64,000 nucleotides of DNA from Nemertoderma westbladi (Eukaryota; Animalia; Xenacoelomorpha), in the NCBI GenBank assembly GCA_032718475.1, contig JAUCBJ010001297.1:60824-124823 (forward strand). The letters are read 5' to 3'. Below, in pieces: positions 1,374-26,423 of the stretch (within the stretch, counting starts at the first letter, position 1; each line of letters starts with the position of its first letter). The position numbers and the translations under genes were made by a program. Below the pieces are notes generated by a model. It did no database searches. It was not told where the DNA came from and worked only from the letters and a program-made list of their open reading frames with translations.

Positions 1374-1904
1374 TGTTAGCTTATTCAATCCCGCTAACAC
1401 CCCATAAAGTTAAGCCGATAAGCAATATTGGGGGCCACGAGATTGGGTAACCAATCACTCGTGTCACCCCAACAAAATGGGAAGGAGAAACACACAATGA
1501 GGGTCAGGGGCCAAACCCCTAACCCAGAGAGAACAGGTGGAGTGAACGGGAACACTCCAAAGGGCGCCAACAAGGGTATCAACCAATCAGAGGGGGGAAA
1601 GGCATCAATTAGGTATAGTAACAAGGCCAACCCGTGCAATATAGCCAGTTGGCAGTAATCATTTCAGTTCAGTTATCTCAGTATCATATTGGTGCTAGTT
1701 AGGTTAGTTAGTTTATCTAGGGAAGGACCGGGACTTAAATTACCGTTTCCCGCCTTCTGTGTACGACATCATATATCTATATCTATATCTTTTACCGGAA
1801 TATTATACGCGACAAACAACGTAAACCCTTTCACTCTTCACACACGGCGGGGACGCGTAAATTAACTAACGGATAAACCGGGATCCTCCCTGGATCCCGT
1901 CACA
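1374..1904 (+). repeat. 5' LTR of copy A
   Basis: Begins TGTTAGC and ends GTCACA; direct repeat of 14632-15162 with about 8 substitutions counted by eye. Confidence 0.97.
1583..1674 (+). promoter_or_regulatory. Candidate Pol II core promoter in the LTR
   Basis: CCAAT at 1583, AT-rich AATATA at ~1638, then TCAGTT initiator-like motifs at 1664 and 1669; B's LTR has a similar arrangement. The TSS is not verified. Confidence 0.4.
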
Positions 1905-1913
1905 GTAATTAAA
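1905..1913 (+). promoter_or_regulatory. Non-tRNA primer-binding site candidate (GTAATTAAA)
   Basis: Directly abuts the LTR end and has no TGG; reverse complement of TTTAATTAC in the LTR (14993-15001 perfect, 1735-1743 one mismatch). Confidence 0.7.
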
Positions 1914-1998
1914 CCCGTCGGTGGCACAGTAATTGAACTCAGAGCTGCCGACCTAGCTAGCTAAACAAGACTACCAGCCGCCAATCGAACCAAGCGAG

Positions 1999-4900
1999 AT
2001 GAGTCAGTCGAGAGAGACAACGCCGACGCGGACCCCGGCGAAGAGTTAACGATCCGCGAGGCCGGAACCAGGCGGTACAGGCTCACAACGCCGGACCCAT
2101 CGGTAACGGGTCACCCGGCAGTTCAGGATGAGGGGGGCCGCCTTGAACCCGAGGTCGAGCCGAGAGAAGGAGAGAGCGAGACAGAGGAGATGTCGGTACC
2201 GATGTCGCCGGCCAGCCACAGGCCGAGGGCGACGAGCGGCCCACCGAAACGGCGACGGTGGGGCCGACGGTATGACGCCGGACCCGGAGAGACGGAAGAG
2301 AGGTCGGCGACGAGGACGTCGGGGTTTCTGATCGACTTCGACGGGCCTACAATGCGACCCAGAAACTGCTAAAGGAGGCCAAAGAGGGGGCGAAGATAGA
2401 CGAGGTGAGACTGAGGAAACGACTAGGTGAGTCGAATAAACACTTTAATTATCTAATGCGCTTCGGGCAAAGAGAACTGGCCAAGGAGAGACCGAGAGGG
2501 GTTGCCGAGGAACTGTATGACTTATGGCGGTGTAGGAGTATGGAACCTAGCGTAGTGTACGTAGGGCCATACTTAGTCGATGCCCAGGGACTAAAATTAG
2601 TGGGTTGGGAGAGACCTGAGGAGGGCGAATCCGAGGTTAACCCCGAAGATTCGGCCTCATCGGTCGGAGGAAGTTCCGGGAGGCGGGGGAAAGTCAGTAG
2701 GTCGGGAAGGCGGAGGGAATCCGTCGCAACCGATAAGTCTGCTACATCCTCCGCGAAAGGAAGACGGGTGAGAGAGATAAATGCCACGTACCATCTCGAT
2801 TTGATAGAGCAAGGTCAAAGGGAAGTAGGTAGACGGTTAGAGGAGGGGAGAGTGCTGCTAGAGAGGGAAATGGCGTTGATCAAAGAAACCGGAGAGAGGG
2901 CCGAAAGGGCCGCGAGAAGCCTTAGGGAGTGTGAGGAAGTAGGGAGGAAGGAACAAGAAGAGCATGAGGCGGAACGTAGGGAACATGTAGCGAGGGAGAA
3001 AGATGAGCGCAAAGAGCGTGAGGCGGAACGTAAGGAACGTGTAGCGAGAGAGGAAAGCGAACGCAGGGAACGTGAGGCGAGAGAGGAAAACGAGTACAAA
3101 GAACACGAGGTGAGAGAGGAAAACGAGTGCAAAGAACACGAGGCGAGAGAGGAGAACGAACGCAGAGATCGTGAGGCGAGACGAAGGGAGGGGGCTAGAA
3201 GAGAGTTGGAATTGGCCGAGCGGGACGCACGGGAGTGTAGGGAGAGAATGGCAAGAAAGGAGTATGAGCGAGAAGAGCTAGAGAAACGTCAAGGTGAGCT
3301 TAGAGGGTACAAAGCTATACATACGTGCGAACGGGAATTGGCGCGAATAGGGGCGTCTGAGAGTGGGGCAGGCTCGAGTATTTTCGAGGAGCCAGGGGCT
3401 GTGGATACATTTATTAATACCCCACTTACAGGGACCGCACGACAGACCCAAGACTGGTGTGACCGTACGGGCGGGGGGGGGGGGGGGGGGTAATAATAAT
3501 GCTACAGTAGACGTCGTTAATATTAATAGTACCGTATTGGATAACCCTAATCCCTTTATTGCAGCAAATAATACTTTACCTAGTAGCAGTAATTTAAATT
3601 TAAATACAAATAATAATTTCAATTTGAACGTGCAAAATAATCCGAATAATAATTTAAATTTAGAAAATAGTAATAATTCAAATAATTTAAGTAATGATCC
3701 AAGCCCGAATTTACAAAATAATCCAAATGATTTTGTTTCAAACGAACAAATTAATTCCGTTTCCAATATGGGTGCTATTAACGTGAACACGTCGGGCGTG
3801 TATGGCCAGGCAGAAGGGGGCCTGGTAGGCCACGTAGTTGGTAGGGAGGGAGTGGCTGGGTTGGGTAGACCCAGAGAGGGCCTGGTAGGCCACGTAGTTG
3901 GTAGGCCGGAGCAGGCGGGGTTGAGCCAACCCAGAGAGGGCCTGGTAGGCCACGTAATTGGTAGGCAGGGAGTGGCTGGGTTGGGTAGACCCAGCGAGGG
4001 CCTGGTAGGCCACGTAGTTGGTAGGCAGGGAGTAGAGGGCCTGGTAGGCCATGCAATAGCAGAGGGACAGGCGGGGGTGAATAGACCCGACCGTGGTAGG
4101 GTTGATGTGTCGACTGGAGAGGGATATAGTAGCGAGGTGAGAGATAGCGAAGTTAGATGTGGCGAGTGGGGGGGGAGGGGGGGGGGCTACAGGGGCCCCA
4201 CAACAGAGAGTTAGCGGCAAAAAGGGGGGGGGGCAGAGAGTGTCCCACAGCCATCAGCGGATAATGCGCGGGCCGAAATAGGTAAACCGCAACACCCGGC
4301 GACGGAAAGCAATAGGGGAATTGCGAGTATCCCCAGCGGCGTGCGACCGAGCAGAGAGAGACAGGTTGACGTCGTAAGAGGGCGGACGAAGCATCGAGCC
4401 CGATCAGAAGAGGGAAGAAGAACAGTGGGGTTTAACCGGGAGGTCGACGAGAGATCTCACGAGCGGGAATACTCCACTGAAAGGAGAAGAAGAGAAGACA
4501 GTAGTAAAAGTATCGCCGCGAACTATAGAAGAGCGAGGACGGATAGCGAGCCGTCGGTAGTCGAGATGAGAACAGAGAGTCAGTGGGGTTGGACTCCGGG
4601 AGATTGCCGTCGCCCCGGAGAGATGCGACCTGGTGAGGCGCATTACGCGCCGATGGAGGGGTACGCGATGTACCGGTACGAAGACGAGAACAGTAGAGGG
4701 TGGGGGGTCGAAGAGAAACTTTCCGACGGAATATACCTACCGATCGAGAATACGGTAGCCGCGGGGAGGACTATTCGAGAAGAATAAACTTCGATCCCGA
4801 GCGACACATGCAGACTGTAGGACATACTGTAGGCCTTACTGCACATACCATAGGCCATACTGACAGAGGCAATGTAGGCGATAGGATAGCGCGGACGACG

Positions 4901-6611
4901 GGATTAAACCCAGAAGTCGCGGAATACATACCGGCGAGTAGGCCAGAAGCTGATAGGCCTATACCGGTACCAGTACACCAGTATGACTACAGCATGCAGG
5001 GACATAACATATACCCAGGGGAGGGGGGAATTATTGCGGATAGGTGTATGGGCCCCAACATATTAACATCAACCCCAGTACCAAACATACCGGTGGGGGG
5101 GGGGGGGACAGGGTGACATTCCCCCATCACAATATCAACAATATACCCCGATAGGAGCAAGAACAACGAGACCCTTGGATGAAAATAGGTCGTGCGACAT
5201 AGAAATATGGAGGGGGCCGCTACCCCCGATGACATATCCAAGTCAAAGGAAAGGTGGAAGTAGGACAGACGGACCGCACCAGACAGGAGTAACTATACAA
5301 CATCCATCAAACCCATTGGAAGCACAGGCGATGGGGATGGCCACGTTGATCGATGCGTTGAAAACGAGGATCGAGTTACCACCCGTGGAACCATTCAAAT
5401 TCGATGGGAGTAGGCCGGAAGAATATCTACAGTTTCGGTGCATGTATAGTAAGGAAATACTAACAAAAAACTTGACGCAGGCGGAGTGCCTAAAATATCT
5501 GCAAGTATACACGGGAGGCCCAGCATACGATATCGTGAGGCAATACCAAGGCATAGAGGGCGGCTTCACGACAGCATGGCGGGCACTGGATAGGGAATAC
5601 GGGCACCCGACCAAGATCATCAGGCAGACACTGAGAGGCATAACATCGGGTGGCCTACAGGATAATCCCGTTAGCATTAAGACGTTCGCTAACAAAGTCG
5701 AAAAGGCGCTAATCGTGCTGAAGACGCTAGACGCGCCATACGAGCTCAACGCGTCCAACAACATCACCACGATAGCGCAGGCACTACCGAACTGGCTGCG
5801 CAACAAGTGGAGGAAAATCGCTTTCTCCACTCGAGACAAGAAGGGTGTGGAACCGGGTTTAGAAGAAATGTCAAGCTTCTTAAACTATGAGGCTGAACTA
5901 ATAACTGACCCAGTCTATAGCGAAGATAGCCTGGGAAAGGGACCGAAGACGGATTACCATAGACCGAAGCCAGAGCACAATACATCAAACGCATTACCGA
6001 GGCTCAGGCAATCATTGCCATATGCAGCAATGCAGGGGACTGCAAGTCCACAGATAGCCGAAAGTAAGACCACACCATGGAACGAACAGGGGAACAATAA
6101 CAACACGAATAAATATAACCCCAGTACGTCCAGTAGGCCGAATCCAAACAATAAGAATAGTAGGGATTTTGGTACAAACGCAGCTGCGATACGCAATGCA
6201 CTGTATAAGGAGGGCTACGACCCAAAGAGCAAATGCCAGCTACACGCAAATGCGCTTCATCAGACCATGAACTGCAGGTACTGGCAGGCGCTACCTAGGC
6301 AAGATCAGATAGATTATGCGTTGAGCAATAAAATCTGCTCGCGATGTGTGATGAGTGGACATAGAGCTAGGGAATGCAAGGAGAAGCCGGTAAAGTTCGG
6401 TCAAAGGAGCGGCCAAACGATGGCAACGAGCACGGTAGGGGCGAAGAAGAGAGGAACGGTGTTACTTGGAGTAGTACCCGTGCGAGTGATTGGGGAAGGC
6501 AATCGATCAGTAACAACACTAATGCTGGTCGATAGTGGAGCTGCCTTCACATTAGTCGAGGAATGGGTGGAATGGAAAGAGATAGAACGAGGCCAAGCAG
6601 AATGGCGGTAA
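1999..6611 (+). pseudogene. gag: Frameshifted gag (very long N-terminal extension) and protease N-terminus of copy A
   Basis: ATG at 1999 matches B's ATG at 32282. Fragments 2405-3493, 3363-4214, 4341-4787, 4700-5116 and 5175-6611 join into one frame by comparison with B and C. BEL gag core (IELPPVEPFKFDGSRPEEYLQF...YLQVYTGGPA), knuckles CQLH..H..C and CSRC..H..C, protease LVDSGA. Confidence 0.88.
3817..4052 (+). repeat. In-frame coding tandem repeat (EGLVGHVVGR, 60-bp period, 5 copies)
   Basis: CCTGGTAGGCCA at 3821, 3881, 3941, 4001 and 4040; copy number differs in B and C. Confidence 0.9.
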
Positions 6612-9600
6612 CAACCATCTCTAGCAAAGATGAGATCCTGGAGATGAGAACCGGACGGTGCGCAATCGCAGCGGTGGCACCGGGATGCGACTATGGGGCA
6701 ACCATCGACCCCATCCAAGTGATAGAGTCAATTAATATCAATGCCAGGCGGCCAACCAACATCGAGGTCGAGCAATATAAATTCCTGGACGACATTGACT
6801 TCTCAATCCCAGATGTGGACGTTAGGAAGGTATCCATCATAGTAGGAATGGACTGCCCAACGGCCCACGAAAGAATGCAAACGGTCTTCGGCGAAGACAA
6901 GCAGTGTGACCCGGTGGCGATATTAACACCATTCGGGTGGACGCTGAGTGGCCCAATCAAGAGCAAGATACCATTTAGGATGTCGGAGACATCAGGATGC
7001 ATGTTCACGGGAACAATGCAGGAAATGGGTGATGAGGGAGCAGAGGAGCAGCTTAAAAGATTGCTCAGACAAGATTTCGAGGGACTGAAAGAGACCAGGG
7101 TCGGGACCTCGGTAGAAGACAAGCAGGCTTTACAAAGCGTGGAGGAATCGATGACATGCGATGAGGGGCGGTATACTATAGGGATGGTATGGAAACTACC
7201 GAAGATACCACTGCCCGATAATAGAGGGATGGTACTCACGAGACTCCGCAAGCTGAAACAAACACTAAAACGGAGCCCCGAGAAGAATGAGTACATCCAC
7301 AGAACGATTAAAAAGTACGTCGAGAAAGGATGGGCCGTGGAGTTACCGGTCGACGAACCGAACACAGACAGGACATATTACCTGCCACTCCACGTGGCTT
7401 TAGACCCAAAGAAAGGTAAACTGCGGATGGTAGTTGACGCATCGGCAAAGACCAACGGAAAATGCTTAAACGACTATCTGTTAGAAGGTCCAAACATATA
7501 CAACTCGGGCATAGAGGTCCTACTTAGATTTAGGAATGGGAAACACACCTTCACGTGTGACATAGAAGGCATGTTCAACCAAGTCCGTGTAACAGAGGAA
7601 GATAGCGATAGTCAACGCTTCTTATGGTATAACGGCGAAAAAGAACCGCCTATAATACCGGCATATAAGATGGTAGTACAAAACATGGGGGCCAAGTCGT
7701 CCTCATTTACGACGACTATGGCAGTGAGAGACACGGTAAAGGGGAAGGAAGATAGATATAGCAGTAGGGCCGTCGATATGATCCGACGCGGCTTCTACGT
7801 AGACGACGGTATGGAGTCTGGAAATACGGTTGAGGAGATACTGGAAACAGGGCGCGAGGTTCGCGACATCCTGAAAGGATCCGGCTTCAACCTGACCAAA
7901 TTCCAATCCAGTTCAGAAGAATTTATCAAGGAAATAGAAGACAAGAAACCAGGATCGACCATGGACAACCCTACAACAGCCAAAGGACAGGACATGGCGA
8001 TTAAGAGAACGGAATCCCAGCAGAAGGCATTGGGAATCGTGTGGGATAGGAAAACAGACGAACTGAAGTATCAGCTGAGCCAGGTGGGCGCAGACACCCA
8101 TACGAAGAGGGGTTATGTATCGTATATAGCAAGGATATACGATCCCCTAGGCCTAGCATCCCCACTACTAGTCACGGGGAAACAGATACTCAAGAGAGTA
8201 TATAAATTGAAGGATGAGTGGGACGTAGAGGTACCAGAGGAAATCAAGAAACAGTGGAGTAAGTGGACAGGAGACTTGGAGAAGATGGGAACATACAACA
8301 TGCCACGAGTGTATTTCCCGGATGGGAACATGACGAATCTGGACCTACACATGTTCTCCGATGCGTCATTAGAGGCGTACGGAGCGGCACTCTATTTAGT
8401 ACAACGAGAGGGGGCTCATAAGCCCAGACTAGCCTTTAGCAAAGCAAAGTCGACGCCGCCAGATTCAGCATCAGTTCCCAAATTAGAATTGACAGCTGCG
8501 AGACTAGGAGTAAGAGCCACAGCCTACCTAGTGGATACCATTCCCAACATAGTGGAGACACACTACTGGACGGACTCCATGGTAGTGCTTGGTTGGCTAC
8601 ATAACGAAAGGACGAGATACCCAATATTCGTCGCAAATAGAGTGGACGAAATAAGGGCGACCACAGAACTGGAAAGGTGGCACTACTGCCCAACGGACGA
8701 GAACCCAGCGGACTTGTTGTCGAGGGGCGTGGTACGCCACACTTTCTTGAAGAAGGAAGTATTGTGGCAACATGGGCCAGAATTTCTGAGCGATAAGGAG
8801 GCCTGGCCGCCGATGAGAAAGGTGGATCCGGGCTCAGAAGTAGTGTCAGAGGGAGAAGAAGGAGATTCAGAGGGAGAAGAGATATACTCCCAGATGGTGA
8901 GGGAGATTAGGGACGTGCAACCAAAGCAAGAACTATGCGATAACCCGACGGATAAACTCCTCAGCTACAGTTCTAGTTGGTATAATACCAAGAAATTAGT
9001 GGCGTACTGGAGAGCCTTCGGGAATTTCCTCGCGGGAGTCGGCAAAGACAAGAAGATCAGGACATCCATAGATCTGGAAGGAGCGGCCAAGGCGGTCATC
9101 CGCTATGAACAACGGAAGAACTATGGCGACGAGGTGGAAAGCGTCGGTAACCAACAGCACCTCCGACGGGACAGCGAGCTGATCACGCTGTCGCCACAAC
9201 TTAATGACGATGGGATTCTAGTAATGAATTCTAGGGTGGGATACAACAACAGCATAATCGTACCATCGAAACCCATCATCATTCCAACAGGATCGCCAAT
9301 AGTTCACCAGATTATCTGGGACTCCCATAAGTCGATATTGCACGGGGGCACCAACAGAACTCTCACGGAGATAAGGAGGACCTTTTGGGTCATACAGTTG
9401 AAGAAGAAGGTAAAAGCGGTAGTGGGGCAGTGCCAGACCTGCCGACGAGCGAAGAAGGAGCGAGCCATACAAGAGATGGCGCCACTACCAGCAAGTAGAG
9501 TAAGACAGCACGACCCGCCATTTACGCATTGTGGTGTGGACATGTTCGGGCCGATAAAGATCAAGGTGATGCGGCACACGGAGAAACGCTACGGTATCAT

Positions 9601-10435
9601 CTTCGTATGTAACAACACGCGGGCGGTAGGGATAGAACTCGCCCAAGATGCAACCGCATCAGCATTCATTAATGCCTTAGAAAGGTTTAGAGACCGCAAA
9701 GGTGGGACGATCGCAGTGATATACAGCGACAACGGCACCAACTTTGTGGGCGGAGAGAATGAGATGGCAGAGGCCTTGGACATCTTGGAAGGGGAGGAAG
9801 TCAGGGCGGCCATGAGACGACGACAAGTAAAGTGGGAGAGAAGGACGCCGTATGCACCACATACACTAGGATGCGTCGAGAAACTGGTGGGCAGTTCAAA
9901 GCGTCTAATGACAAAGCTAATGAACACCCACATGGTCACTGAGGACGTCTTACGGACAGTGCTTGCGAAGTGCGAGGGGATCATTAATAGCAGACTGCTA
10001 TACCCGGAGAATGATGACCCTGAATCACTAGACGTGCTGACGCCTAGCCATTTTCTAATGGAAAGGCCAGCGACCATCGATATGCGGGGTGTAGATCCAG
10101 ACGACATACACTCCCGCCAGAGTTGGAAAGTCGCTAAAGCAATAAGTGCCGAGTATTGGAGGAGGTGGGTTGAAGAATACCTGCCCACGCTCCATAAAAG
10201 AAGCAAGTGGAGGAAGCCGAATAGGGAGTTAAGAGAGGGAGATCTCGTAATCGTTACGGATGATACTATCATCAACAACCAATGGCGGTTGGCGAGAGTT
10301 GTAGGCACTTACTCCGATGAGGACGAAAGAGTCCGATCGGTAGAAGTGCGGATAGGTGGTAAGATAGGTGCGAAGGACAGAAAAACCTACAGGAGAGCTG
10401 TAGGGAAATGCTGTCTGTTAGAAGGGGCACCTTAG
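6563..10435 (+). CDS. pol: BEL/Pao Pol (protease C-terminus, RT, RNase H, integrase), open for 1290 aa
   Basis: RT: YYLPLH, KLRMVVDAS, LNDYLLEGPN, DIEGMF, FYVDD, DPLG. RNase H: MFSDAS..AYGA, PKLEL, YWTDS, NPAD. Integrase: H..H..CQTC, GVDMFGP, SDNGTNF, CVEK, WRLARV. Separated from gag here by a local lesion at ~6570 that B lacks. Confidence 0.97.
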   Translation: MGGMERDRTRPSRMAVTTISSKDEILEMRTGRCAIAAVAPGCDYGATIDPIQVIESININARRPTNIEVEQYKFLDDIDFSIPDVDVRKVSIIVGMDCPTAHERMQTVFGEDKQCDPVAILTPFGWTLSGPIKSKIPFRMSETSGCMFTGTMQEMGDEGAEEQLKRLLRQDFEGLKETRVGTSVEDKQALQSVEESMTCDEGRYTIGMVWKLPKIPLPDNRGMVLTRLRKLKQTLKRSPEKNEYIHRTIKKYVEKGWAVELPVDEPNTDRTYYLPLHVALDPKKGKLRMVVDASAKTNGKCLNDYLLEGPNIYNSGIEVLLRFRNGKHTFTCDIEGMFNQVRVTEEDSDSQRFLWYNGEKEPPIIPAYKMVVQNMGAKSSSFTTTMAVRDTVKGKEDRYSSRAVDMIRRGFYVDDGMESGNTVEEILETGREVRDILKGSGFNLTKFQSSSEEFIKEIEDKKPGSTMDNPTTAKGQDMAIKRTESQQKALGIVWDRKTDELKYQLSQVGADTHTKRGYVSYIARIYDPLGLASPLLVTGKQILKRVYKLKDEWDVEVPEEIKKQWSKWTGDLEKMGTYNMPRVYFPDGNMTNLDLHMFSDASLEAYGAALYLVQREGAHKPRLAFSKAKSTPPDSASVPKLELTAARLGVRATAYLVDTIPNIVETHYWTDSMVVLGWLHNERTRYPIFVANRVDEIRATTELERWHYCPTDENPADLLSRGVVRHTFLKKEVLWQHGPEFLSDKEAWPPMRKVDPGSEVVSEGEEGDSEGEEIYSQMVREIRDVQPKQELCDNPTDKLLSYSSSWYNTKKLVAYWRAFGNFLAGVGKDKKIRTSIDLEGAAKAVIRYEQRKNYGDEVESVGNQQHLRRDSELITLSPQLNDDGILVMNSRVGYNNSIIVPSKPIIIPTGSPIVHQIIWDSHKSILHGGTNRTLTEIRRTFWVIQLKKKVKAVVGQCQTCRRAKKERAIQEMAPLPASRVRQHDPPFTHCGVDMFGPIKIKVMRHTEKRYGIIFVCNNTRAVGIELAQDATASAFINALERFRDRKGGTIAVIYSDNGTNFVGGENEMAEALDILEGEEVRAAMRRRQVKWERRTPYAPHTLGCVEKLVGSSKRLMTKLMNTHMVTEDVLRTVLAKCEGIINSRLLYPENDDPESLDVLTPSHFLMERPATIDMRGVDPDDIHSRQSWKVAKAISAEYWRRWVEEYLPTLHKRSKWRKPNRELREGDLVIVTDDTIINNQWRLARVVGTYSDEDERVRSVEVRIGGKIGAKDRKTYRRAVGKCCLLEGAP

Positions 10436-10549
10436 TGGAGTTGAAGAAGAGTTTAGTCATCCAAGCTTTGGACTGAGGGGGGTGGGATTGAGGGCGAGAC
10501 GCCCTTCCCACACAAAAAAAATAGAAAATAAAAAATAAAATAATAGTAC

Positions 10550-10915
10550 ATAGTAGGTACGCAGTTAGTAGGCAGAAGTTAGCCAGTAAGAGGTACGTAG
10601 TACCATCAGTTAGTTAGTTAGAGAGTTAGAGGGTACGTAGTAGCGTTAGTTAGAGAGTTAGAGGGTACGTAGTACCGTCAGTTAATTAGTTAGAGAGTTA
10701 GATGGTACGTAGTACCGTTAGTTAGAGAGTTAGAGGGTACGTAGTACCGTTAGTTAGAGAGTTAGAGGGTACGTAGTACCGTTAGTTAAAGAGTTAGAGG
10801 GTACGTAGTACCGTTAGTTAGAGAGTTAGAGGGTACGTAGTACCGTTAGTTAGAGAGAGAGAGTAAGAGTTAGAGGGTACGTAGTACCGTTAGTTAGAGA
10901 GAGAGTAAGAGGTAG
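10550..10915 (+). repeat. Tandem array (~32-bp unit, core GAGGGTACGTAGTACC with GTTA spacers) between pol and the extra ORF
   Basis: GTAGTACC recurs at 10741, 10773 etc.; homologous arrays are present in B and C. Confidence 0.93.
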
Positions 10916-11379
10916 AAGGGTATAAGATATAGATATTAGTTAGCAGTTAGTAGCGAGAGGGGGGCATATGAGTACAGCTGGGTAAATCGTGTGGCCACGC
11001 GACGCATACTGCTGTACTGCACAGGCCCACAGAGTAGGCCAGAATGTGGATTAGAGAATAGAATAATCCATAGGCAATAGTAAGTAGTAGGACAGTAGAA
11101 TTAAAACTAAACTAAAATAAATAGAATAGGGCTGAAAGTTACAAATTATGGCAACACTAGGAAAGTTATTCTGGAACATAATAAAAGTAACTGACAGAAA
11201 TTAAAATTAGGGTGTATTTACTAGCTTCAGAATTAATTAGTAATAATTTAGGCTAAAAGGGCGCAGTTGAGTAAGGAATAGGCCATTATCGGACCGTACA
11301 GAACATCTTAGATACATCACTCATCTGTATTGCGCCTTGGTAAGGCACCACCTTACAGGTGAGCGAGTGAGTGTTCGGA

Positions 11380-13925
11380 ATGACGAGCAAATTGATCAGA
11401 AAGAGAAAGGCGGAGTCAGGAGGAAAGGAGATACTGGTGGATTTCACCGAGAGGCATCCGGAAGAGAAGACGAGAGGATACTACGAGAGGTTGGAAAGGG
11501 GTCACGCGGCACGAGCGCTGCAGGATCACTTCTGGGAGATGCACGAACAGCGGCTGGTCGGGACCTACGGGACGCCGTCGCTGGACAATGCGATCTTCCA
11601 ACACTTCCACTACGTGGTAAAAGGGGACGAGGCGAAGTTCGGGATTCCAAAGTACCCGAGGGAATCACCAAGGAAGGATTGGAAGAGATTCATAGAGTCC
11701 GTCAACAGGGGAGGATATATGATCCTAGACGATGAGGGAACTGTGGAAGACGAGGAGGGTTCGAGACGAGGATCGGCGGGGTCGGCCAGGACCATACTCC
11801 TACATTTGGCCGCGCCAAATGGGGACATCTTCTTATTCGATCTAGGAACGTATGGGAAGAAGGACGGGGCGAAATTAAACCGGTTGCCGAAAGCGGTACA
11901 AGTCTTGGTAAGAGAGAAGTCGACGACGAAAGTGGGATCGGCGATTCGCGAGGACACGGAGAGAATCATCGGTCCGGACGCCACCAACCTCCTGGATATG
12001 CAGAAGGTCTTCATGGCTATGACGGCACCGGATGGGTTGGGGGTAGTCGGAAACACAGGTCAATACGGGGCGGTGGCAATGGGCCAACTATTGGGGCTCG
12101 TATGCCACAAACCGATGGACTGGGGGAAGTTCAGGGAAGAATACGGAGCAGAACTAGCGAACTCGCTAAAGTGGGGAGCGAGACCGGGAAAGCAAGAGGT
12201 ATATCAATTCCGCAGAGGAGCGATAAAGGTATATCAGAAGCGATATATCCTGCAGGAAGATTGGATGATGATAAGTTTGCTTAACTTATTTATGACCGTG
12301 GTTATCGAGAGGGAACCAGCGGCATTTCTGTTATCGGGATCACCCCTAAGCTACAGGACAGCCTTTAAAATGGCCTTCGACGGTCTGGTAGACCACCCGG
12401 GGCTGAAGGGCGAGTCGGTGTACTATAACAGCCGACATCTGGTAGACGGGGAGACAGATACGCCGTATCAGAGATGGGAGCAGCTAGAGACGGATAGACG
12501 AGAAGCAAAGCGACTGGAAGAAGTCGCTAGACGGCAGAGGATAGAAGCAGAGGAGAGGGAAGAGGAGGCCAGGACGCAGAGTTACGGCTTCGAGGAACAG
12601 GCAGGCTTAGACGAACTTCATTGGACTTCATCAGGGAGTTCGGGGGAGTCTCTAGGGCGAGAATTGGGATGGACGGTGGGATCGCCGAAACAGTCGACGT
12701 CGGGGTTGCAAGAGATGCCCATACCAGCGGGCGCCGAAGGCGACCAACCACCAAGGAAGTTAAGGGAGCTAGAGGGATGGAGAGCTACGGGCGAGAGCCA
12801 AGGCGGGAAGGGACATAGTGGATCCATCGGGATACCGGGGTTGGAGCCACTGCCAGAGGAGGAGGATGACGACGACGAGTTCGGAGGGGTGCCGCCCATC
12901 GAGAGGATTGGCCACTCGGACACGGACTGGGTTGGCGGGAGGGTGGTGACGGCCAGTGGGGCGAGGGCCTTCTGGAACAGATCCGGCAAGCGGTCCTGGG
13001 TGCACGAGGAGCCAGCGATGGATTTCGCGGGGAGCACTATCAGGTTGGGCGAGCAACCGGGGACGGCACCACGGATAGTATTCGGGGGACAATGCCCGAG
13101 AGGGGCGAAGAGATCGACGTAGACAGGGACACCAACGTGGAGAAGTTCGCCTACCAGCGACTCCACAGACCGCGGAGATCGCTCGGGACGAAAGACGACG
13201 TGGGGCGGGAGACATTGGTACTCGGTTGCGACTACTGTGGGAGACAGACCCACCAGGAAAGGAGCTGCTTGTACCGGTTCCAAAAGGGAACCTTTTGTCT
13301 CTACTGCCGAGAGTCGAGCCACAGGATGGGGGCGTGTCCCCGGTTGCATAACCGATGTCTGAAGTGCAACTTTCGGGGACACTACGGACGCCAGTGCGAC
13401 TGGATGGACGACGAAGAGAAGTTCAGAAGATTCGAGGAGTGGGCCGACGTCGGGGCCATGACGCGCCAGCGCATGAAGGCCCAGGAGTTCAAGTGGGGTT
13501 TCTTCCTTATCAATCAGGAGGCTCACATGGAAATCATAAAGCGGAGGTTACCGTTTACCTATCAAGAGGTAGCAACGGCGGCGTCGTATGCCGGAGTGAT
13601 GAATACACAAAGATATTTGGACAGGTGGACGCCACAGAACTGAGGGGAGTTTAGGGATTTCTTGGCGGAGCACGTGCCGCGAGCAATGAAAATGATCCTA
13701 TGGGACGCCACCAGAGGGAGACAACAGGGCCACTCTGAGGGGCCACCGGCGAAGCGATATCGGGCACTAATAACACCAGCGCCCAAGGAGCCAACAACCG
13801 GGATCTGTAGGGAGGTGGCGGCGAAAGTCCGAAAGCAGAAAACGGATCCCAGAGGAGCGGCAGTAACCAAGAAACGACCCAGGGAAGAGGACGCCAGAGG
13901 GAACTATCCCCAGAGGAACAGATAG
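11380..13925 (+). pseudogene. Extra ORF: DEDDy-like 3'-5' exonuclease domain plus 3x CCHC zinc knuckles (~850 aa reconstructed), copy A
   Basis: ILDDEG (ExoI-like, 11722-11739); LLHLA..IFLFDL..LP..V..LV....KVG..I.ED (ExoII-like, ~11929-11955); NLLDMQ; QKRYILQED (ExoIII-like, 12235-12261); three C-x2-C-x4-H-x4-C at 13227-13397. A 1-nt deletion at ~13088 and a TGA at 13641 are absent from the other copies. Confidence 0.8.
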
Positions 13926-14593
13926 GTTCCCAGGGCCGGGGGAGTTAAACTGAGACTTGGACGTGGTACGCCTGGAAGGCGCCGCGTGGGACGTACGAAC
14001 TATTAAGTACAAACTAAGCTGATGCAAAATAATTAAATAAGTGCAATTATATGTACATACGTAGTGGTCAGTAGTTTAGCAATAAAAATATACGTTCGGA
14101 GTAAGTACTATAGTCATACAACCTTTCTCAATTAGCTACTGGGACTGGGGGGATAACTGACTATGGCACTATGGACGAGACACCAGACGATTTCACACTT
14201 CTTGAGTGCGACGGCACAAGAGGGGGGGGGAGATTCGTCAGAAGGGATGAGGTAGCCAAAGAGAGACGGAGTAATAGTGCGAAGTGCGGAGAGAGTGCGG
14301 ACGCAATTCTAGTGTGGGGGGGGGAGAATAAGAGGTTGAGTGAGGGACGAGGAGGTCCGAGGGTATGAGAGAGTTAGGGTGAGAGTGGAGAAGAGATAGG
14401 GCGAAAGTGTTGGGGAAACAAAAGTCGTGTGAGAGGTGAGCGCGATCGGCCCGACATGGGACGCCAGGCATACAGGGTAGCGTTATCATACCCATAGGGA
14501 GCAGCCTGGAAAGCCGGCTCCGAGAGAAAAGAATTCCACCCCACACCCGATACTAGATCGGGATCCAGCGGGATTGTAGCGCACTTTAGGTGG

Positions 14594-14631
14594 ATGCTAT
14601 CTTCTCACCGGGAAGATAGCATGGGGGGGAG
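14594..14631 (+). promoter_or_regulatory. 11-bp hairpin followed by the polypurine tract
   Basis: ATGCTATCTTC-N7-GAAGATAGCAT then GGGGGGGAG directly before the 3' LTR; same arrangement in B and C. Confidence 0.85.
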
Positions 14632-15162
14632 TGTTAGCTTATTCAATCCTGCTAACACCCCATAAAGTTAAGCCGATAAGCAATATTGGGGGCCACGAGA
14701 TTGGGTAACCAATCACTCGTGTCACCCCAACAAAATGGGAAGGAGAAACACACAATGAGGGTCAGGGGCCAAACCCCTAACCCAGAGAGAACAGGTGGAG
14801 TGAACGGGAACACTCCAAAGGGTGCCAACAAGGGTATCAACCAATCAGAGGGGGGAAAGGCATCGATTAGGTAGAGTAACAAGGCCAACCCGTGCAATAT
14901 AGCCAGTTGGCAGTAATCATTTCAGTTCAGTTATCTCAGTATCATATTGGTGCTAGTTAGGTTAGTTAGTTTAGCTAGGGAAGGACCGGGACTTTAATTA
15001 CCGTTTCCCGCCTTCTGTGTACGACATCATATATCTATATCTATATCTTTTACCTGAATATTATACGCGACAAACAACGTAAACCCTTTCACTCTTCACA
15101 CACGGCGGGGACGCGTAAATTAACAAACGGATAAACCGGGATCCTCCCTGGATCCCGTCACA
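14632..15162 (+). repeat. 3' LTR of copy A
   Basis: 531-bp direct repeat of 1374-1904, followed by TSD GTTCG. Confidence 0.97.
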
Positions 15163-18100
15163 GTTCGGAACTTGGGTTGTCCAGCAAAGATGTCTTCGGC
15201 TAGCTCTTTGTCGATGAATGTTCCTGTGCTACCGGAGTCAAGGAGGGCATTCACTATATAACTCCTTTTAGGTAAGTGGACCCTTAACTGCACTACTGGA
15301 AATTCTCGGATTCCTACATTGGAAGTTGGCGCTTTCCAAGATGGTTGTCGATCAGAAGTAGTTAGGGTGAGGTCGCTGTCGGTGTCTTTTTCGTAAGTGA
15401 GTGCTCGATACACTGCGGTATTTATCATGTAACAGGATTCGTTTTCGTCGGAGAATTCGTCCGTATAGAATCCTTCCATCTCAGAACTTTGGTCAGTGTC
15501 ATTCACATCACTGAACTGGACATGTAATTCGGAATCACTTACCTGACTCTGGCTGTTTCGCTCGAATTCAGTGTGCAACAAGATATGATGTTTCGCACCG
15601 CACTTTGCACACCTTGTGTCGGAGTAACAGGTTCGCCGTTGGTGTCCTTGTCTGAGGCAATTATAACACAACCGCTTATCCCACATGACTTCCCATCTCT
15701 CCGTTAATGATTTCTTTAGGAATTCATCACACATATTCAAACGGTGAGTCCCGTCACATAGCACACATTTCGGTTTGATGTTACTTACCTTATTTTGAAC
15801 AACATTGTGCACACTCGTTCTTTCTTTGGGCTTTCTCATCTGAATTCTCTTAGGAGACGGAGGAGGAGTTTTTCTTACCTGTTCTCTCCTGTCATTGGTT
15901 CGAGACTTGAATTTACTTACCTGTTCTTTAGGTGTTTTATTGACATAATAAGATCTTTCAGTGTCTTTCCCGCTGTCCTCTCCTTGAGAAGTCTGGCTTT
16001 CGCCGTCGTCGGTATAACACACTGGTGTTACTTTTCTCCTAGAAACGGGTTTCTCACTTACCTTGTTTTCCGGTGTCTTCTCTCTGGACTGCTTTAGGAG
16101 TTGTAATTTCACTTCTCCGTCTAAGAATGACATGAGATCAGCCATGGTAGGGTCTCGTCGTTGTTATTCCATCATATATAACACTTTTTTATCCCAGCGT
16201 GTACCTACTCCACCCTTCGGTAAAGTAGAAGCCACGGCTCCAATAACCATAGAACTCTGATATTCATGAGACTTACCTAACCAATCTAATTGTCTACAGA
16301 TCTCTTGAATCTCATCGGAAAACTCTATTATCTTGCTGCTAATGAACTCTCGGGGCGCTACTAATTTTGCATACAAATATTTAGCTATGTTATTCCTATT
16401 ACCATACCTGATGTTTATTGTATCCCAAACTTGTGTTAATCCGTCTGGATGTCCAATAAACTTTAACGCCATTAACTTGGGAGATCCTTGCAAGCACTCG
16501 ATGAGGAATCTAAGTTTCTCTCCGTTAGATAGCACAGAGTTCTGTATGTTATCTTTGTAATATTCATTAAAAGGTAACCATTTCATCTCATCTCCATTGA
16601 ACTTGACTATCTCTCCCACCTTTACCGCTTGACGGGCTTCGGTTCTAGCCATTTGACGTTAAAACTTTCTTGGGCCATCGTGTTATTTAATGTCGAGTTA
16701 TCGGTATATAAATTTCTAGGATTATGATCAAGTCTATAGGGAATATCATTGTCAACAGGTTTATAATTACCCTTAATAGGGTTCACTATAGGAGTTTCTA
16801 CTTCACTAGCAGTATAGATGCGTGTAGGCTCCACACCTTGCGCATGAGATACTTCAGACCTAACAGGTTGACACATTGTTACCGAGGGTGGTGGTATACC
16901 CTTTTGTGTATTTACTAATTTATCGCGTTCTAATGCGATACTTTGCTGCACTTCTTGCAACTCTAACCTACTTTCCCTTACTGTGCCCTTGAACTGCTTA
17001 ACAGTCTCCTGCATCTGCCCGAGCAGGAGATCCATCCCCCGCCGTCTCTCATCCACCCACTCGACCGCCGAAGCGGGAGCCGCCAACGTTGTAGCGGGCG
17101 GACGAGGGACAACGGGCGACAAATCATTAATTTTTCGCTCGGAGTCAGGGACATGAACATTTTCAGGGGAGGTTCTGTGGGGCACAGGTAGCTTAGTGCT
17201 GTGCAGAGGGAATTTAGAGGTGGGTTCTGGGAGCACAGGTGTCTCTATCACCGAAGGGGTGATTTCAAGAACAGGCCTAATTATTTCAGGCTCATCTACT
17301 ATAGTAGGGAGTCTTTCTATTTTAATTATTTGGTCTGTGGGTTCTGTACTACCTAAGTCTGTGTTAGTTAGTTGCCTTCTAACAGCTGGGGGCAAATCAG
17401 GCAATTTGTGACGGTGAGATGTTCTTCTACGCCTACTTAGACGAGATCTATTTCCTCCGCCTTCAGGATTGGTGGTATCGCCTTCCTCAGATGATGTATA
17501 TCCTTGTCTTTTGGGAGTAGATCGATTCATCATCTGCATATTACTAGCTGTTAACTGTTTATTGAAGTTGTCTTGCCTCTCTTGTAGATTTTCCAACTCT
17601 AGTTGGGTTGTCTCTTCAGATGCCCTCCGTTCTGCTTCTGCCACTGCTATTTTTCTTTCCGCTTCGGCCGCCTTTCTTTCCGCTTCTGCCGCTGCTGCTT
17701 TTCTTTCCGCTTCGGCCGCCTTTCTTTCCGCTTCTACTGCTGCAGCTACCGCTTTTGCCTCTGCCGCTGCCGCTTTTGCCTCTGCCGCTGCCTCTGCGGC
17801 TTTTCTATCCACTTCTGCCGCTTTTCTTTCCGCTTCTGCCACTGCCACTGCCGCTGCTGCTGTCTTTCTATCTTCTATACGTTTTTTCTTTACTTGTTCT
17901 TCTTGAACCTTAGCGATGCGGATGCTTTCATCAAATTTAGCTTGGTTCGCAGCTATCCTATCCGCATCGATTGCGTCCAACACAAGCTTGGCTCCTTCAC
18001 TATTAGGGCTAAGTCCATCCAGCCGTCTCCTCAATTCTTCGTCCCCTACAAAGCGTTGATAGTCTGACAGATAGATGTCAATGGCATCCCTCTTATGCGG

Positions 18101-19039
18101 TTTCTCTGCTGTCGCTTCGCTTTCCACTTGGGAAAAGGTAGCGTCTGTTGATTCTCCATGGGTTGAGCGCTCATCCAACTGAGATTTCCACGGGGTAGTT
18201 CTTTGAACTTGGAGGCTCACCCGCTGAAACCACGTCTTTACGGCAACTTGCAACGACGTGTCTTGTCTTCTTTTGGAAGCCTCCTCAAAGGCAGATAAGA
18301 TTAGTCTGATTCTTAGAATTCTTTCTCTAACTTGATAAAGCAGCTTTCCCTGCTCTTGAGGTCCTTGTGGTTGTCGAAACAATTGTTCCTCTAATCTCTC
18401 CATAGAGCTGAAGAATCCCTGTACGTATCCGGCTGCTGACCTCTTCCATACAGCTGGATCACTGGTTTCTTTTGTCACTCCCATCCTGTGTATGTCTTCC
18501 CAGGCAGCTTCTGATAAGTCAAACGGGAGTCCGGGTCCGGGGAAGTTCCATTGCAACTCGACAATAGACTTCAGTTCTTCCCTTGTATATCCCGCATAAC
18601 TATCCTTGGTCGATTGTTTACTTCTCGCCCAATCAATCTGGTGTTCCTCCACTGCAATCAATACCCTAGCAAGTAAGGCTGCAGGAAGGATGAGAAGGGG
18701 ATCCGAATAAACCACATCTGCCATTTTAGCTCCGCCCTCGGATGTCAGCTCTACAGTATCCGCACCACTGGAGCTGTCGGTCCGCTGAGAAATAAGTTCT
18801 CGGCTCGAGTGTTGCTGCTGTTCTGCTGCTTCTTGGTCTCGTTTGACTTGAGCTCGAGTGCCTATAATAGACCTACGGTGTTGGACCAGCCTAGGGTCTG
18901 ATATTACTACTGGAGGGATGACCTTTCTTACAGTAGGAGGTGAGTTGAACTTTGTTCTCACACGTTCCACACTCCTATCTGGGTCACAGATGGTTGTATC
19001 TAAGAGACTGTCTGACAGGTTTTGCTTTGTGTCAGACAT
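15163..19039 (-). pseudogene. gag: Gag-protease of element D (805-aa N-terminal extension with AAEAERK coiled-coil repeats, gag core, zinc knuckles, protease)
   Basis: ORFs 16622-19039, 16164-16652 and 15120-16145 are separated by frameshifts. IVKFNGD..W..F...EKLRFL..CLQG; CVLC..H..C, CYNC..H..C, CAKC..HH..LH (BEL-type triple knuckle); ALLDSGS. Confidence 0.9.
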
Positions 19040-20377
19040 GGTTGTTTGTACAGTTGAATGCCTACTGCTATATTACAGTTAAAGCAAGTCTAGTAATTCA
19101 GTATCAACTGTTAGCCTAGTAATTAATTACCGATACTGTTACTCAGTGTAACGTGATATATATACAATATATTAGAATACCGGTATGCTTATAGTATATA
19201 TATAAGTATTATTTCAGACTAGATTTGTCCCAGAATACCGGTATATAATTTTAGCGCAAATATATAAATATATAATAGGCCTATCGTGAATACCGGTATA
19301 CAGCTTACACTTATAGTATATATAAGTATAATTATGGACTAGAATTAATTACAGAATACCAGTATAATTTCAGCCTAAATTTATAGAAATAAATATAATA
19401 AGCCTATTGTAAATACCAGTATGTCAATTATTTTAAATAATTGAATTTCTGAATTTTTAGGGGTTACTTGGTTACTTTAACTTACTTTATTACCGTTATT
19501 TAAGCAGTAGTCCAACTGATATTGAGACCTAATTGTTGTAAAACAGGCCTACTATTTTATAAATCAGTTTGAGTTGATTTATAATATATATACCCGTGTC
19601 AATGGGTTTTTTTTGTCAATATTTGAAATAAATGTTATTATTTCTGGGAGGAGTCACTACACAGAAGCTGTGCGCTCTCAGTGAAGTGCTACTTGCTGGA
19701 CACTAAAACAAATAATTCTAATTTACCTAAGTTACTTAATACTACAAAATTACGTACAATTCGGTGTGAGATTACAATCTCTAAATAAACACAAAAATTA
19801 CAAGTACGAAATTTTAGGGTAATTTTACAAGAAGTCTACAAACCAGCCTAACAAAGGGTTAGAATATCTGGTTATTACAACGGACAGGGTACTACGGTAT
19901 TTGAAAATAATAAGTAGTAGTAAATATACTGCGTTGTCCAGATAGGAAAATACCACCATCTGACGACTTATGGCCGTATCGCTATAAGTACTACGTTATG
20001 TATCACGGAGTGTTCCTACCTAGAAGTTAATTACCGCGGTCTACCATAACCAACGTGCCTATTAACCACTTTACAACACAAATATACTACCTACACACTA
20101 ATTACCTTCGGAAAGCACTGTACACTAAACCCTAAATTAGGTACAAGTACTTATACAACAAATAATCAGTAGTTAAAATACTTGAACAGCTAAAAGAACC
20201 ACGGTATCTGCTGGAGTGACCGGGGCACAAAATCACCAGTCTTTACCTACGCCAAGCAGCCCTGATGTAGTACCGCGGTTAATTTAACTATAACGGTATA
20301 TATAACAAGCACAATTACTGTAGGAATAAACTTGGGGATATGAATGTTGCGAATAATCGCATAAACTCTGAATAATA

Positions 20378-20949
20378 AATATTACGCTACGCGTACAGAC
20401 TACTCAAACAAAATGCAGACCAAATACTGACAGACTACTATCAAGCCTAAACAAACCACGGTATATGCAGACTCCGAAATGGTTAGTTAGTATGCGTTCT
20501 AACCGAGTAGTATGACTTATTCTTTCGAGGGGGTTTACCTCACAGCACTGGAAGCCCCTACGTTCCCAACTGGCACTTTATCGGACATACATTCTACACA
20601 CACCGAAATCTCTTCAAGCCTAACAACAGCCAGACAACTATCCAGCCTACAAATTATCTAAATAAGAAATATTACGCTACCCGTACAGACTACACAAACA
20701 AAGTACAAACCAAACGCTGGCAGACTACTATCAAGCCTAAACAAACTATAGTATATGCAGACTCCGAAATGGTTAGTTAGTATGCGTTCTAACCGAGTAG
20801 TACGACTTATTCTTTCAAGGGGGTTTACCTCACAGCACTGGAAGCCCCTACTTTCCTAACTAGTACTTTTTCGGACATACGCTCTACACACACTACAATC
20901 TCCTCAAACTCAACAACAGTCAGACAACAGTCCAGCCTACAAATTATCT
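20378..20949. repeat. Two-copy ~290-bp tandem duplication in the leader of D
   Basis: ATTACGCTAC at 20381 and 20671; TCCAGCCTACAAATTATCT at 20641 and 20931; single copy in D' (~26785-27072). Confidence 0.9.
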
Positions 20950-21275
20950 GTACAATCTGGGCAGGCTTACACGTCTTCTGCTCAATATTAACCTACAAAT
21001 AAATAAAACCTGACAGAAATAAGTAAAATCTCAATAAAAAACCAGGGCTGCAGTCCCTGATTAATTATTAAGGCCTACCGGTATATAATTATCAAAATCG
21101 AATAATACTACTGTACCTGTACTGCTGTAGGTACTGGTCCGGGTGGTTAGGTAGTCAGGCCTACTAGGTACTGGTTGACCGGTACTTCAGCTTTATTGCC
21201 TACTGCAATACAGAAGCTATATCTGTTATTGTTCGCGCTTTCAGACCTTTAGCAGTTTAACCTGCCAAATTGGGA

Positions 21276-22391
21276 TGTCTTCTAGATAATAAATCGTCTT
21301 TAGCCTATGACAAGTATTTGATACACTACATTAGCCAAAGCCAGTCTATGCGCGACCATTCACCCACTGGATATACCCGGGAGACTGGATTCGGAAGCCT
21401 AACCGTATTGCGTTGTAGGCCTACTGCATTATTCGATTGATCGTTAATATATAATCTCTGACAAATATTATTCACTTTCAGGAAATATTAACAGTTCCTT
21501 TTGGACGTGGCGCTCTAAATATGTAAACAGAGTTATGACTTAAACTAGACACAACGGGATGGCTATAGATTCACGTATATGGCGCATTCTTTAGGAGATG
21601 CTTTGTTATCAGTCACAATCATACACAATACTGCACAATGCTGCACACCAATCTGCCGACCTTCACTAATTTTAGTCACATATAAAGAGAACAACAACCA
21701 ATGCATGTAGTGCCTATGAAATAGCATTAGATTCACTTCAAAACCACTTAATGTAAGTCGCAATCATTATATGTAACCGGTCTCTCTTACCTTCAGTATA
21801 TCAAGAAGATTGAGGGTTTTGTAATTATTTATCGGTATTCCAAATATAATAATATTCCATCAACTGATATAATGAATAACCGACAGTAAATAGCAGTAAA
21901 ATTGCAGTGTTTGTAGTTGACAATATGATTAGGTGAGTGAGATAACAGATATACATTCTATAATTAAGCCTACTAATGTTGGACTAAAGACTGAAAACAC
22001 AGAGGTTCCAAAGCCGGTCTTCTGACTGTGGACAAAATACACATACTGACTCAATTCCTGAGTTTCTGTATACAACCTCCAACACAGAGTCAAAAATCGC
22101 TCTGATTGGTCGAGTGATTGCACAGAGTGGGCCTGAACAAAGAAAGTTCCACGAGTACACCAAATCAGCTGATAGATGTCGTAATCTGAACTACACTGTG
22201 TAGAGAGTATTATCGCGTATTGCGGCATAAGATTGCTAGTTATGTCTGCCAAAGTACACATACAGAAAAATAGCTTTTTATGTCCACTAAAATACCGGTA
22301 CAGTAAGGAAACGGCTTTTATGTCCGTTAAAACATCTACAGAGTACTTTGCGGGGAAAAAATGACTAGCTAATCCCGCAAAAGCTTTTACA
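21276..22391 (-). repeat. Probable ~1.1-kb 5' LTR of element D
   Basis: Sharp shared TG start with D'; ends near AGAAGACA, followed after a short spacer by TGGCAGGTTAAAC in both copies. No 3' LTR is in the window, so the inner boundary is approximate. Confidence 0.6.
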
Positions 22392-24672: not shown

Positions 24673-25757
24673 TGTAAAAGCTTTTGCGGATATAACAAGC
24701 CATTTTTCTCCGCAATATACCGTGTAGGTGTTATAGCGGACATAACAAGCCATTTTTACCCGCTATGTCTGCATGTGTGCTTTAGCGGACATAACAAGCC
24801 ATTTTTGCCGCAATGCGCATAATACTCTAAAGACTGGAACTCAGATGACGACATCTGTCAGCTGATTTACTGCCAACGTGGAACCTTTTTTCTTTGTTCG
24901 GCTCAGCCAATCAGAGCGATTTTCATTTTATGTGTGCTTTAGCCCTATGTAGCCTGCTCATGTAGTCTGCTATGTAGCTATGTAGCCTATGTACCGTGCT
25001 AGGCATGTCATGTGTCAGTGTCTTAGTTTTTATCTTTCCAGGCCCAGAACACCGGCTTTGGATTCTTCTGTGCTTCTGTGGAAGTTTCAGACTTTGACCG
25101 GAACATTAGATAGCTTTGATTGTAGAAACGTAAATCTATAACCTGTACTGCATTGGACTCTCACCGCATTATTTTACTTCTGTTTACTGTCTGTTATTAA
25201 TTGATATATATGGATGGATATATTGTTATATTTTGAGAATAACGATAAATAATCATAAAACCCCAATCTTCTTGATTACTGAAGGTAAGAGGGCCGGTAA
25301 CCTGTAGCAATTGCGACTTACATTATAGTGGTTTTGTGTGAATTAAATGCTATTTCATAGTCCCTACATGTGTCAGTTGCTATCCTCCTTATATATGATC
25401 AAATTCAGTGACGGTTGGCAGATGAGTGTGAAGTAGTGTGAAGTTGTGTGCAGTAGAGTGATTGGTAATAAAGCATCTCCTAAAGAATGCGCCTTTTACG
25501 AAACTCAGTAACCATCTAGTTGTGATTAGTATAAGTCATAACTCTGTTTTATACTTAAAGCACCACGTCCTAAAGGAACTGTTAATATTTCCCCGAAAGT
25601 AAATATATTGTCAGAGATTATATAGTAATGACCAATCGAATAATACAGTAGGTCTACAACGCAATAATAAGACCAAGCCCCCGAATCCAGTCTCCCTTAA
25701 CAGTGGGTGGATGGTCGCGCATAGACTGGCTTCGGCTAATGTTATTTCAGTGTAATA

Positions 25758-26423
25758 CAGTACAGGCCACCAGAAAAAGCAGATTTCACCCAATGTGATC
25801 ACATGTGAACACATTTGTTCAAGTCATCTGATTGGCAGGTTATGGCGAGTTATCTAGCTAACTTGCTGGGACCGACAAAGGCTTAGTGTGCGGTGCGCCT
25901 GTATGTCTGATATCAGGTAGATGAGAGAGCCCACAGGGCGTAACATTGCGGACATGGGCTGTATTGGTAGAGAGAGAACTACATACAAGACCACATGGAG
26001 GTTCATGGAGTGTATGGGAGTGGATGGGTATATGGATGGACGAGCCTAGACCATTGAATAATTAATTTAGTGCAGGGAGATGTCGCGCCATTAGTCTGGC
26101 ACCGAGAGGGCACAGAGAAACACCAGAAGATGGCTTAACATCACTAAATATAGGCCTGCCTACTAGACACTATTAACCGCACACTATAAAGGTAAACAAA
26201 ATCCTTATCGCATTTGCGGCAAACTACAGAGAGTTTCCAGATTACTAAGCGTTTCAAAAGTATTCAATTGTATCCTTTGGCAAAAAAAATTTGGTTGTTG
26301 CCAATTCAATTATGTTCAATTATGTTCAATTGTCCCGTTCAACAACATTACATTTCACTGGTACACATTTGATAAAATGTGTTCCCAATTGTACAAATCT
26401 GCGTTTTCTAGTGACCTGTACTG
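25758..26423. mobile_element. Non-autonomous Tc1/mariner-pogo-like DNA transposon (MITE) inside the D' LTR
   Basis: Imperfect ~28-bp TIRs CAGTACAGGCCACCAGAAAAAGCAGATT / AATCTGCGTTTTCTAGTGACCTGTACTG, TA on both sides, absent from the D LTR. Confidence 0.85.

Follow-up and report, generated by a model that had tools for sequence, protein, structure and literature searches.

Two related LTR retrotransposons of the BEL/Pao superfamily in Nemertoderma westbladi probably prime their own reverse transcription with a short segment excised from inside their own RNA. They were analyzed in a 64,000-nt stretch of DNA, hereafter the window (assembly GCA_032718475.1, contig JAUCBJ010001297.1, positions 60,824-124,823 of the forward strand). 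The bases that follow the 5' LTR complement a 9-10 nt segment of the LTR, here called P, and comparable self-complementary sites were found in 15 other BEL/Pao families. The evidence for an internal, self-derived primer is presented below together with the alternatives that it has to be weighed against.

Elements in the Window

The window holds three related LTR elements of 13-14 kb each. Element A (1374-15162, forward strand) has TG...CA LTRs at 1374-1904 (5', 531 nt) and 14632-15162 (3'), with the target-site duplication GTTCG on both flanks (1369-1373 and 15163-15167). Element B (31657-50380, forward strand) has its 5' LTR at 31657-32186 and its 3' LTR at 49848-50380; its target-site duplication pair is GCACC/GCCCC, and a gypsy element, F, is nested inside it at 37775-42763. 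Element C, on the reverse strand, has its 3' LTR at 51056-51608, is cut off near 63875, and shows no 5' LTR or primer site in the window. The target-site duplications fix the LTR ends of A and B at ...CACA. The coordinates given by a first-pass annotation for the LTRs, sites and P variants of A, B and C were all correct on re-check.

By Pfam, A contains a DUF1759 gag region (5067-6611, forward strand) and a pol region with Peptidase_A17, Integrase_H2C2 and DUF5641 (6536-10435, forward strand), and on the basis of these domains A and B are assigned to BEL/Pao. The domain order PR-RT-RH-IN, with DUF1759 gag, Peptidase_A17, integrase and DUF5641, is that of BEL/Pao (Belpaoviridae), as is the combination of TG...CA LTRs, a polypurine tract (14612-14631 in A, forward strand) and a short target-site duplication. 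PF05380 was present in 120 of 120 protein homologues among the matches listed, at 31-38% identity. Membership in the Tf1/sushi group, marked by a Ty3/gypsy chromovirus polyprotein, found no support, the domains being those of BEL/Pao and a chromodomain search of the window element being negative. Reading frames are interrupted in all three copies.

Several other features were recorded in these elements. About 3 kb precedes the gag domain, and long forward-strand ORFs at 12870-13643 and 2276-3493 were Pfam-negative, one of them with weak zinc-knuckle-like scores (E 2-3). An additional ORF of 583 aa lies 3' of pol in A (11371-13122, forward strand), B (46650-48077) and C (53150-54877, reverse strand) with 84-96% identity, and family, structure and homologue searches with it were all empty. 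By eye we took the copy at 11371-13122 to resemble a DEDD 3'-5' exonuclease; its candidacy as a primer-trimming 3'-5' exonuclease was dropped, as the searches gave no backing and the predicted structure had a pLDDT of 33. Between pol and this ORF lie arrays (10541-10912, 45515-46195 and 55353-55847 in A, B and C, respectively) whose units of 32-51 nt carry a GGTACGTAGTACC palindrome.

The surroundings of the elements are themselves repetitive. D and E, copies of a different large BEL/Pao family that are 70-91% alike, stand head-to-head in segments 1-1368, 15163-22391 (reverse strand) and 24673-31527 (forward strand), with an endonuclease fragment between them (21929-22873), and A is inserted within D. 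The LTR ends of D and E could not be fixed by the search, and a self-primer scan of both gave unanchored matches only. B inserted into a short piece, in reversed orientation, of the internal region of its own family (31590-31656 and 50381-50452); this piece matches A 13674-13806 and C 52445-52578 at 83-90%.

Candidate Primer Site and Its Complement in the LTR

No TGG, the sign of a tRNA-primed element, occurs near the 5' LTR of A or B, and the 64-kb window contains no tRNA genes. The candidate primer-binding site of A (1905-1913, forward strand) is the exact reverse complement, 9/9, of the P copy in its 3' LTR (14993-15001), and the candidate self-primer P of its 5' LTR (1735-1743, forward strand) differs at one base. 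The candidate site of B (32187-32196, forward strand) is the exact reverse complement, 10/10, of its P at 32013-32022. A P variant is present in C at 51241-51249 (reverse strand), and primer site and LTR partner are both visible in two copies only, A and B. The lack of TGG and the exact complement in the own LTR, 9 bases in A and 10 in B, had been reported in the first-pass annotation and were confirmed here: among 20,000 dinucleotide shuffles of the LTR, 96 (A) and 20 (B) equalled the match at base +1, and with offsets of 0-3 permitted, 31 and 6 of 2,000 shuffles were as good, p-values that are not independent because A and B are homologues.

The match is specific to each copy. Cross matches between the leader of A and the LTR of B, and the reverse, reach a maximum of 4 bases; one A-T pair of A is G-C in B, which has one additional T-A pair, and the P of B could still pair with the site of A via one G-U. 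The primer duplex is of low stability (-5.4 and -8.7 kcal/mol). As a control, the nested element F has an ordinary TGG-type primer site (37927-37938, forward strand) and no self match, 916 of 2,000 shuffles being as good. F also has identical 152-nt LTRs ending in TAA and 51-nt tandem repeats at 37974-38537. A and B share with Tf1-type self-priming the absence of a tRNA site and post-LTR bases complementary to the own LTR.

Self-Complementary Sites in Metagenome Relatives

Relatives were collected from metagenome contigs with a profile built from 33 polyproteins, and the best 77 of 484 confirmed loci were retained. Self-complementary primer sites were found in 16 of these 77 (15 families, L023 and L024 being one), a TGG-type site in four, and 57 were without class. 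The first-pass annotation had read the trait as an independent origin of self-priming in BEL/Pao; with self-complementary sites in 15 other families, it is common in the superfamily and not confined to the window's family. Twelve loci yielded candidate LTR ends at both flanks, of which three were doubtful (L044, L017 and L065, without class); the nine with a usable end comprise two TGG loci (L006 and L048) and seven self-complementary ones. The TGG of L005, L006, L015 and L048 lies 2-5 nt past the CA/TA end.

Three self-complementary loci have a contiguous match, including L059 (11 nt, 2 of 300 shuffles), and in the other 13 (12 families) the complement exists solely across the splice junction of an LTR intron. 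These introns, with canonical splice signals and a length of 67-426 nt, occur in L001, L004, L016, L020, L022, L023, L024, L030, L036, L041, L053, L057 and L070. Matches of 10-15 nt across a GT-AG LTR intron were equalled by 0-5 of 200 shuffles in L001, L023, L036, L070 and L020 (the 3' LTR of the last runs to the contig end), and L030 has an 11-nt match across its intron at offset 5. Inheritance of an LTR intron would require an unspliced 3' LTR copy. When upstream regions were scanned blind, 11 of 63 real sequences matched versus 2 of 189 shuffles. A splice-built primer was also considered for the window and rejected, since the best candidates, 5 nt in A (151 of 200 shuffles) and 8 nt in B (19 of 200), fall below the unspliced 9 and 10.

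The boundaries of the matched segments are recurrent. Candidate primer lengths are 9-13 nt, and the site starts within 0-5 nt of the LTR end in all relatives. The 3' end of the matched segment is AC in 13 families and AT in two (L057 among them), where AC was a scan requirement for nine of the 15; the six found from LTR ends gave five AC and one AT. A second AC, required by none of the scans, stands immediately 5' of the segment in 9 of 15 relatives (p 3e-7 versus background) and 2-3 nt inside the match in two more. A and B keep both boundary rules, with AC directly 5' of P and at its end, and this links their P to the mechanism of the relatives even though it needs no intron.

A search for the LTR-end pattern gave 0 matches in viral_contigs and metagenome_contigs, and no BEL relatives were detected in viral_contigs. 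The LTRs of L030 (7270-7810) and L059 (566-911) end in TATA instead of CA, with a 5-bp target-site duplication in L030. L009 and L038 each contain head-to-tail tandem BEL/Pao sequence, 100% identical, in a single contig, and these may be assembly artefacts.

Position of P within the Transcript

A motif scan places a predicted promoter well upstream of P. A TATA-like AATATA (1638-1643 in A, forward strand; 31921 in B; also in C) is followed 29-31 nt 3' in all three copies by an initiator-like TCAGT (1669-1674 in A, forward strand). From these motifs, the start of transcription in A is predicted near 1671, some 65 nt 5' of P. Because no TATA-like box occurs 25-32 nt upstream of P in any of the three and leader pairing reaches about 24 nt upstream of P, P is probably internal in the transcript, some 65 nt from its 5' end.

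The first-pass annotation had proposed self-priming on the basis of two copies. Self-priming is backed more strongly than by those two copies, with 15 further BEL/Pao families; its geometry does not look like that of Tf1, as judged by the TATA-like box and the upstream leader pairing. In the Tf1 geometry, which is here a variant within the best explanation and an unlikely one, the transcript would start at P and a single cut would release a primer of 9-10 nt. The primer lengths of 9-13 nt are indeed close to the 11 of Tf1, in A and B the match breaks off sharply at the first base of P, and 9 of the 15 relatives have candidate primers starting with A, in 8 cases after a pyrimidine. However, a TATA-like box at -25 to -32 was seen in one of the 14 relatives whose upstream sequence was long enough and in none of A, B and C, where the shared promoter-like pair lies 55-70 nt further upstream; in addition, the second leader-LTR helix (block 2, below) requires RNA upstream of P, and the first exon of the spliced relatives would be just 4-9 nt if transcription started at the primer. 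Priming from a poly(A) end at P was also rejected, the listed poly(A) hexamers being absent from the 30 nt before the end of P and the sole downstream candidate being GATAAA at 1872.

Additional Helices and Predicted Folds

Three features had been missed by the first-pass annotation: a repeated primer site, an alternative partner of P, and a second helix between leader and LTR. Both leaders carry the site twice. The second CACA plus primer-site unit lies at 1925-1937 in A (forward strand), where it pairs with P via one G-U, and at 32218-32231 in B (forward strand), where the 10-mer is identical to the first. In the folds of A, B and C, an R-U5 stem begins immediately 3' of P and of the predicted cut (5' arm 1744-1754; 3' arm 1846-1855, invariant in the three copies; both forward strand). 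It is lengthened by P' (1857-1865 in A, forward strand; 32139-32148 in B), an alternative or decoy partner of P in U5, and a terminal U5 hairpin with an invariant 8-bp stem and a variable loop is predicted in all three (1879-1899, forward strand). P' was matched by 1, 4 and 3 of 50 shuffles in the window copies, and in the three contiguous-primer relatives it was not above shuffles (11, 5 and 36 of 50).

P and P' covary at two double-sided changes across A, B and C, which suggests an RNA switch in the predicted folds. The earlier claim that the primer site co-varies with P retains the compensated changes between A and B and loses its uniqueness; since P covaries with P' too, covariation alone is no proof of priming. 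In block 2, the leader complements the LTR 12-24 nt upstream of P. The LTR arm is at 1711-1722 in A (forward strand; 14969-14980 in its 3' LTR) and 31990-32001 in B, and the leader arm at 1957-1966 in A and 32207-32218 in B (both forward strand), the latter pairing 12/12 with the A 3' and C LTRs and 11/12 with its own. Elsewhere in the 64 kb, the 12-mer at 32207 recurs solely in the 3' LTR of A and the LTR of C. Taken by itself, block 2 is modest (equalled by 63, 312 and 30 of 2,000 shuffles), and relatives show no evident counterpart, their best matches being 5-9 nt.

Folding of the natural RNA of B from its predicted start gave pairing probabilities of 0.92 for P with the site, a value ranging over 0.31-0.92 with the chosen 5' end, and 0.81 for block 2. 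For the natural 5' LTR of A, with its mismatched P, the values were 0.79 for P:P' and 0.006 for P:site. The fold of 31985-32222, a region picked after the helix was seen, had a z of -3.7 (0 of 200 shuffles).

The two double-sided changes shared by P and P' would also suit a structural switch acting in packaging, dimerisation or translation, with priming left to a host RNA, for instance half of a tRNA. Half-tRNA primers without TGG are known in copia lineages (PMC6317226). Such an arrangement is given a low probability, as the match begins exactly at the first post-LTR base in A and B and at 0-5 nt in relatives, and a host RNA would have to match every one of the differing sites of 15 families, each of which matches its own LTR, 12 of them solely after splicing. 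Chance, or a by-product of local U5 duplication, might be invoked for a short, A/T-rich match in a leader with tandem duplications, but it is very improbable given the shuffle tests, the recurrence in distant families, and a site that fits the complement of P better than it fits P'.

Sequencing Depth at the Site in Host Data

The abundance of the site was assessed in five host DNA runs from three studies, using the summed contig depth over 1850-1945 for X2, X3 and X5. Contig depth follows A through 1913 and drops immediately after, 16-, 8- and 4-fold in the three studies. It is 10,941, 21,407 and 359 (X2, X3 and X5, respectively) at 1906-1909, 5,535, 9,815 and 259 at 1910-1913, and 336, 1,239 and 61 at 1914-1917. 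This drop behind 1913 indicates that a 9-base site like that of A is common to many copies and the following sequence is not, where contig depth is not copy number, one run is possibly the source of the window itself, and depth was read without letters, B-type and predicted C-type contigs each being expected to differ from A at 4 letters.

The LTR sequence as such is very abundant in the host runs, as might be expected if the LTR-derived primer acted in trans, the short RNA stemming from a different copy, from a solo LTR or from small-RNA processing and not from fold-back of one genome RNA. In cis, moreover, P' competes with the site for P and is synthesized first. Nevertheless, in B the R-U5 stem and block 2 bring P onto the site within a single molecule, and copy-specific covariation is simpler with a cis primer; action in trans is given a low probability.

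Proposed Priming Mechanism

In the preferred reading, an internal primer acting in cis, P would replace the tRNA: a 9-10 base LTR segment, cut out of the element RNA, would prime reverse transcription. The natural RNA of B would fold with P on the site at base +1, the R-U5 stem immediately 3' of P, and the second leader-LTR helix upstream. A cut after the final AC of P (1743/1744), with the RNase H of the element as the probable enzyme by analogy with Tf1, would yield the 3' OH, and the 5' end of the primer would be set by a second cut or by a polymerase stop after the upstream AC (1734/1735). Strong-stop DNA would span 1904 to 1744. In Tf1, the primer is reported to stay in place and to be copied into the plus strand. 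In the present elements, plus-strand synthesis would copy the primer and rewrite the primer site as the complement of P, and under this proposal even the one-base lengthening is matched because the site is rewritten from the primer. Pairing with P' would mask P both in the nascent transcript and in the 3' LTR copy that the RNA carries.

A broader reading, tentative and held at somewhat less than an even chance, is that much of BEL/Pao has left tRNA priming for a mechanism different from that of Tf1. A primer of 9-13 nt would be excised internally between two AC sites, mostly after host splicing, and the window's family would be an intron-free form with an RNA switch that opposes the decoy P' to the site plus block 2.

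Origin of the Putative Self-Priming

In trees that omit four loci with short RT cover, 14 of the 15 putatively self-primed families cluster together with high support (SH-aLRT 99 in two trees), and FastTree gives 1.0 to the group that additionally contains L001. The window element lies outside that group on a long branch. Its union with the self-primed families versus the tRNA-type loci has a support of 0.977 in FastTree and an SH-aLRT of 56 in IQ-TREE, and a mixture-model tree (quick tree only) does not group it with them. The self versus tRNA label changes once on the FastTree and IQ-TREE trees and twice on the mixture-model tree. These trees fit a single origin of the trait within BEL/Pao as well as more than one. 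Self-priming here is likely independent of that of Tf1, given the different superfamilies and the different geometry.

Comparison with Known Systems and Implications

BEL/Pao elements are generally described as tRNA-primed. Their tRNA-primed members share the domain set and order of the window's family, with TGG in L005, L006, L015 and L048 and none in the window's family. The text of two BEL surveys (PMC554778 and PMC3118150) contains no mention of PBS, tRNA or priming by term search, and their supplements could list primer sites. Self-priming in BEL/Pao is not reported in the papers found, a body of literature largely outside subscription journals and Repbase notes.

The closest parallel is with Tf1, Tf2, Tj1 and the Tf1/sushi chromoviruses, which resemble A and B in having no tRNA site and a site right behind the 5' LTR that complements an LTR segment of about 10 nt (PMC7175516, PMC4600332, bioRxiv 10.1101/2022.12.06.519325). 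In Tf1, the primer is freed by RNase H cleavage (PMC7175516), and additional helices flank the primer duplex, as predicted in A and B (bioRxiv 10.1101/2022.12.06.519325). The differences are equally clear. Tf1 is a gypsy element, whereas A and B belong to BEL/Pao, and its primer consists of the 5'-terminal 11 nt of the RNA (PMC7175516), whereas the P of A and B is seemingly internal, with AC on both sides. In the Tf1 pretzel, as described in bioRxiv 10.1101/2022.12.06.519325, both site-adjacent sequences pair with the LTR downstream of the primer, whereas the A and B leaders pair upstream. The only other exact blocks of at least 8 nt between these leaders and their own family's LTRs are upstream of P, apart from one A-leader 8-mer that matches the C LTR downstream, and the predicted folds show no pretzel. 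The window's family also has a decoy partner and a duplicated site, and most relatives would build the primer by splicing, unlike Tf1. Among plant Ty1/copia elements, TAR, Houba and Osr-1 have self-priming predicted from sequence, as here, in a superfamily other than gypsy (PMC6317226). This precedent outside Tf1/sushi somewhat lowers the surprise of the present case. What is new here is the set of candidate self-complementary sites across 15 BEL/Pao families, self-priming itself being known from Tf1.

The mode of priming serves as a marker of lineage among LTR elements; self-priming has been demonstrated in Tf1 alone and predicted in the Tf1 group and a single copia lineage. The present reading, if true, predicts to the base what sequencing of 5' ends, degradome and strong-stop DNA should show. 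It would also account for the many BEL/Pao elements that receive no primer-site call, and it would mean that a third LTR superfamily self-primes widely and in a different manner, with an internal primer, two boundaries and, often, splicing.
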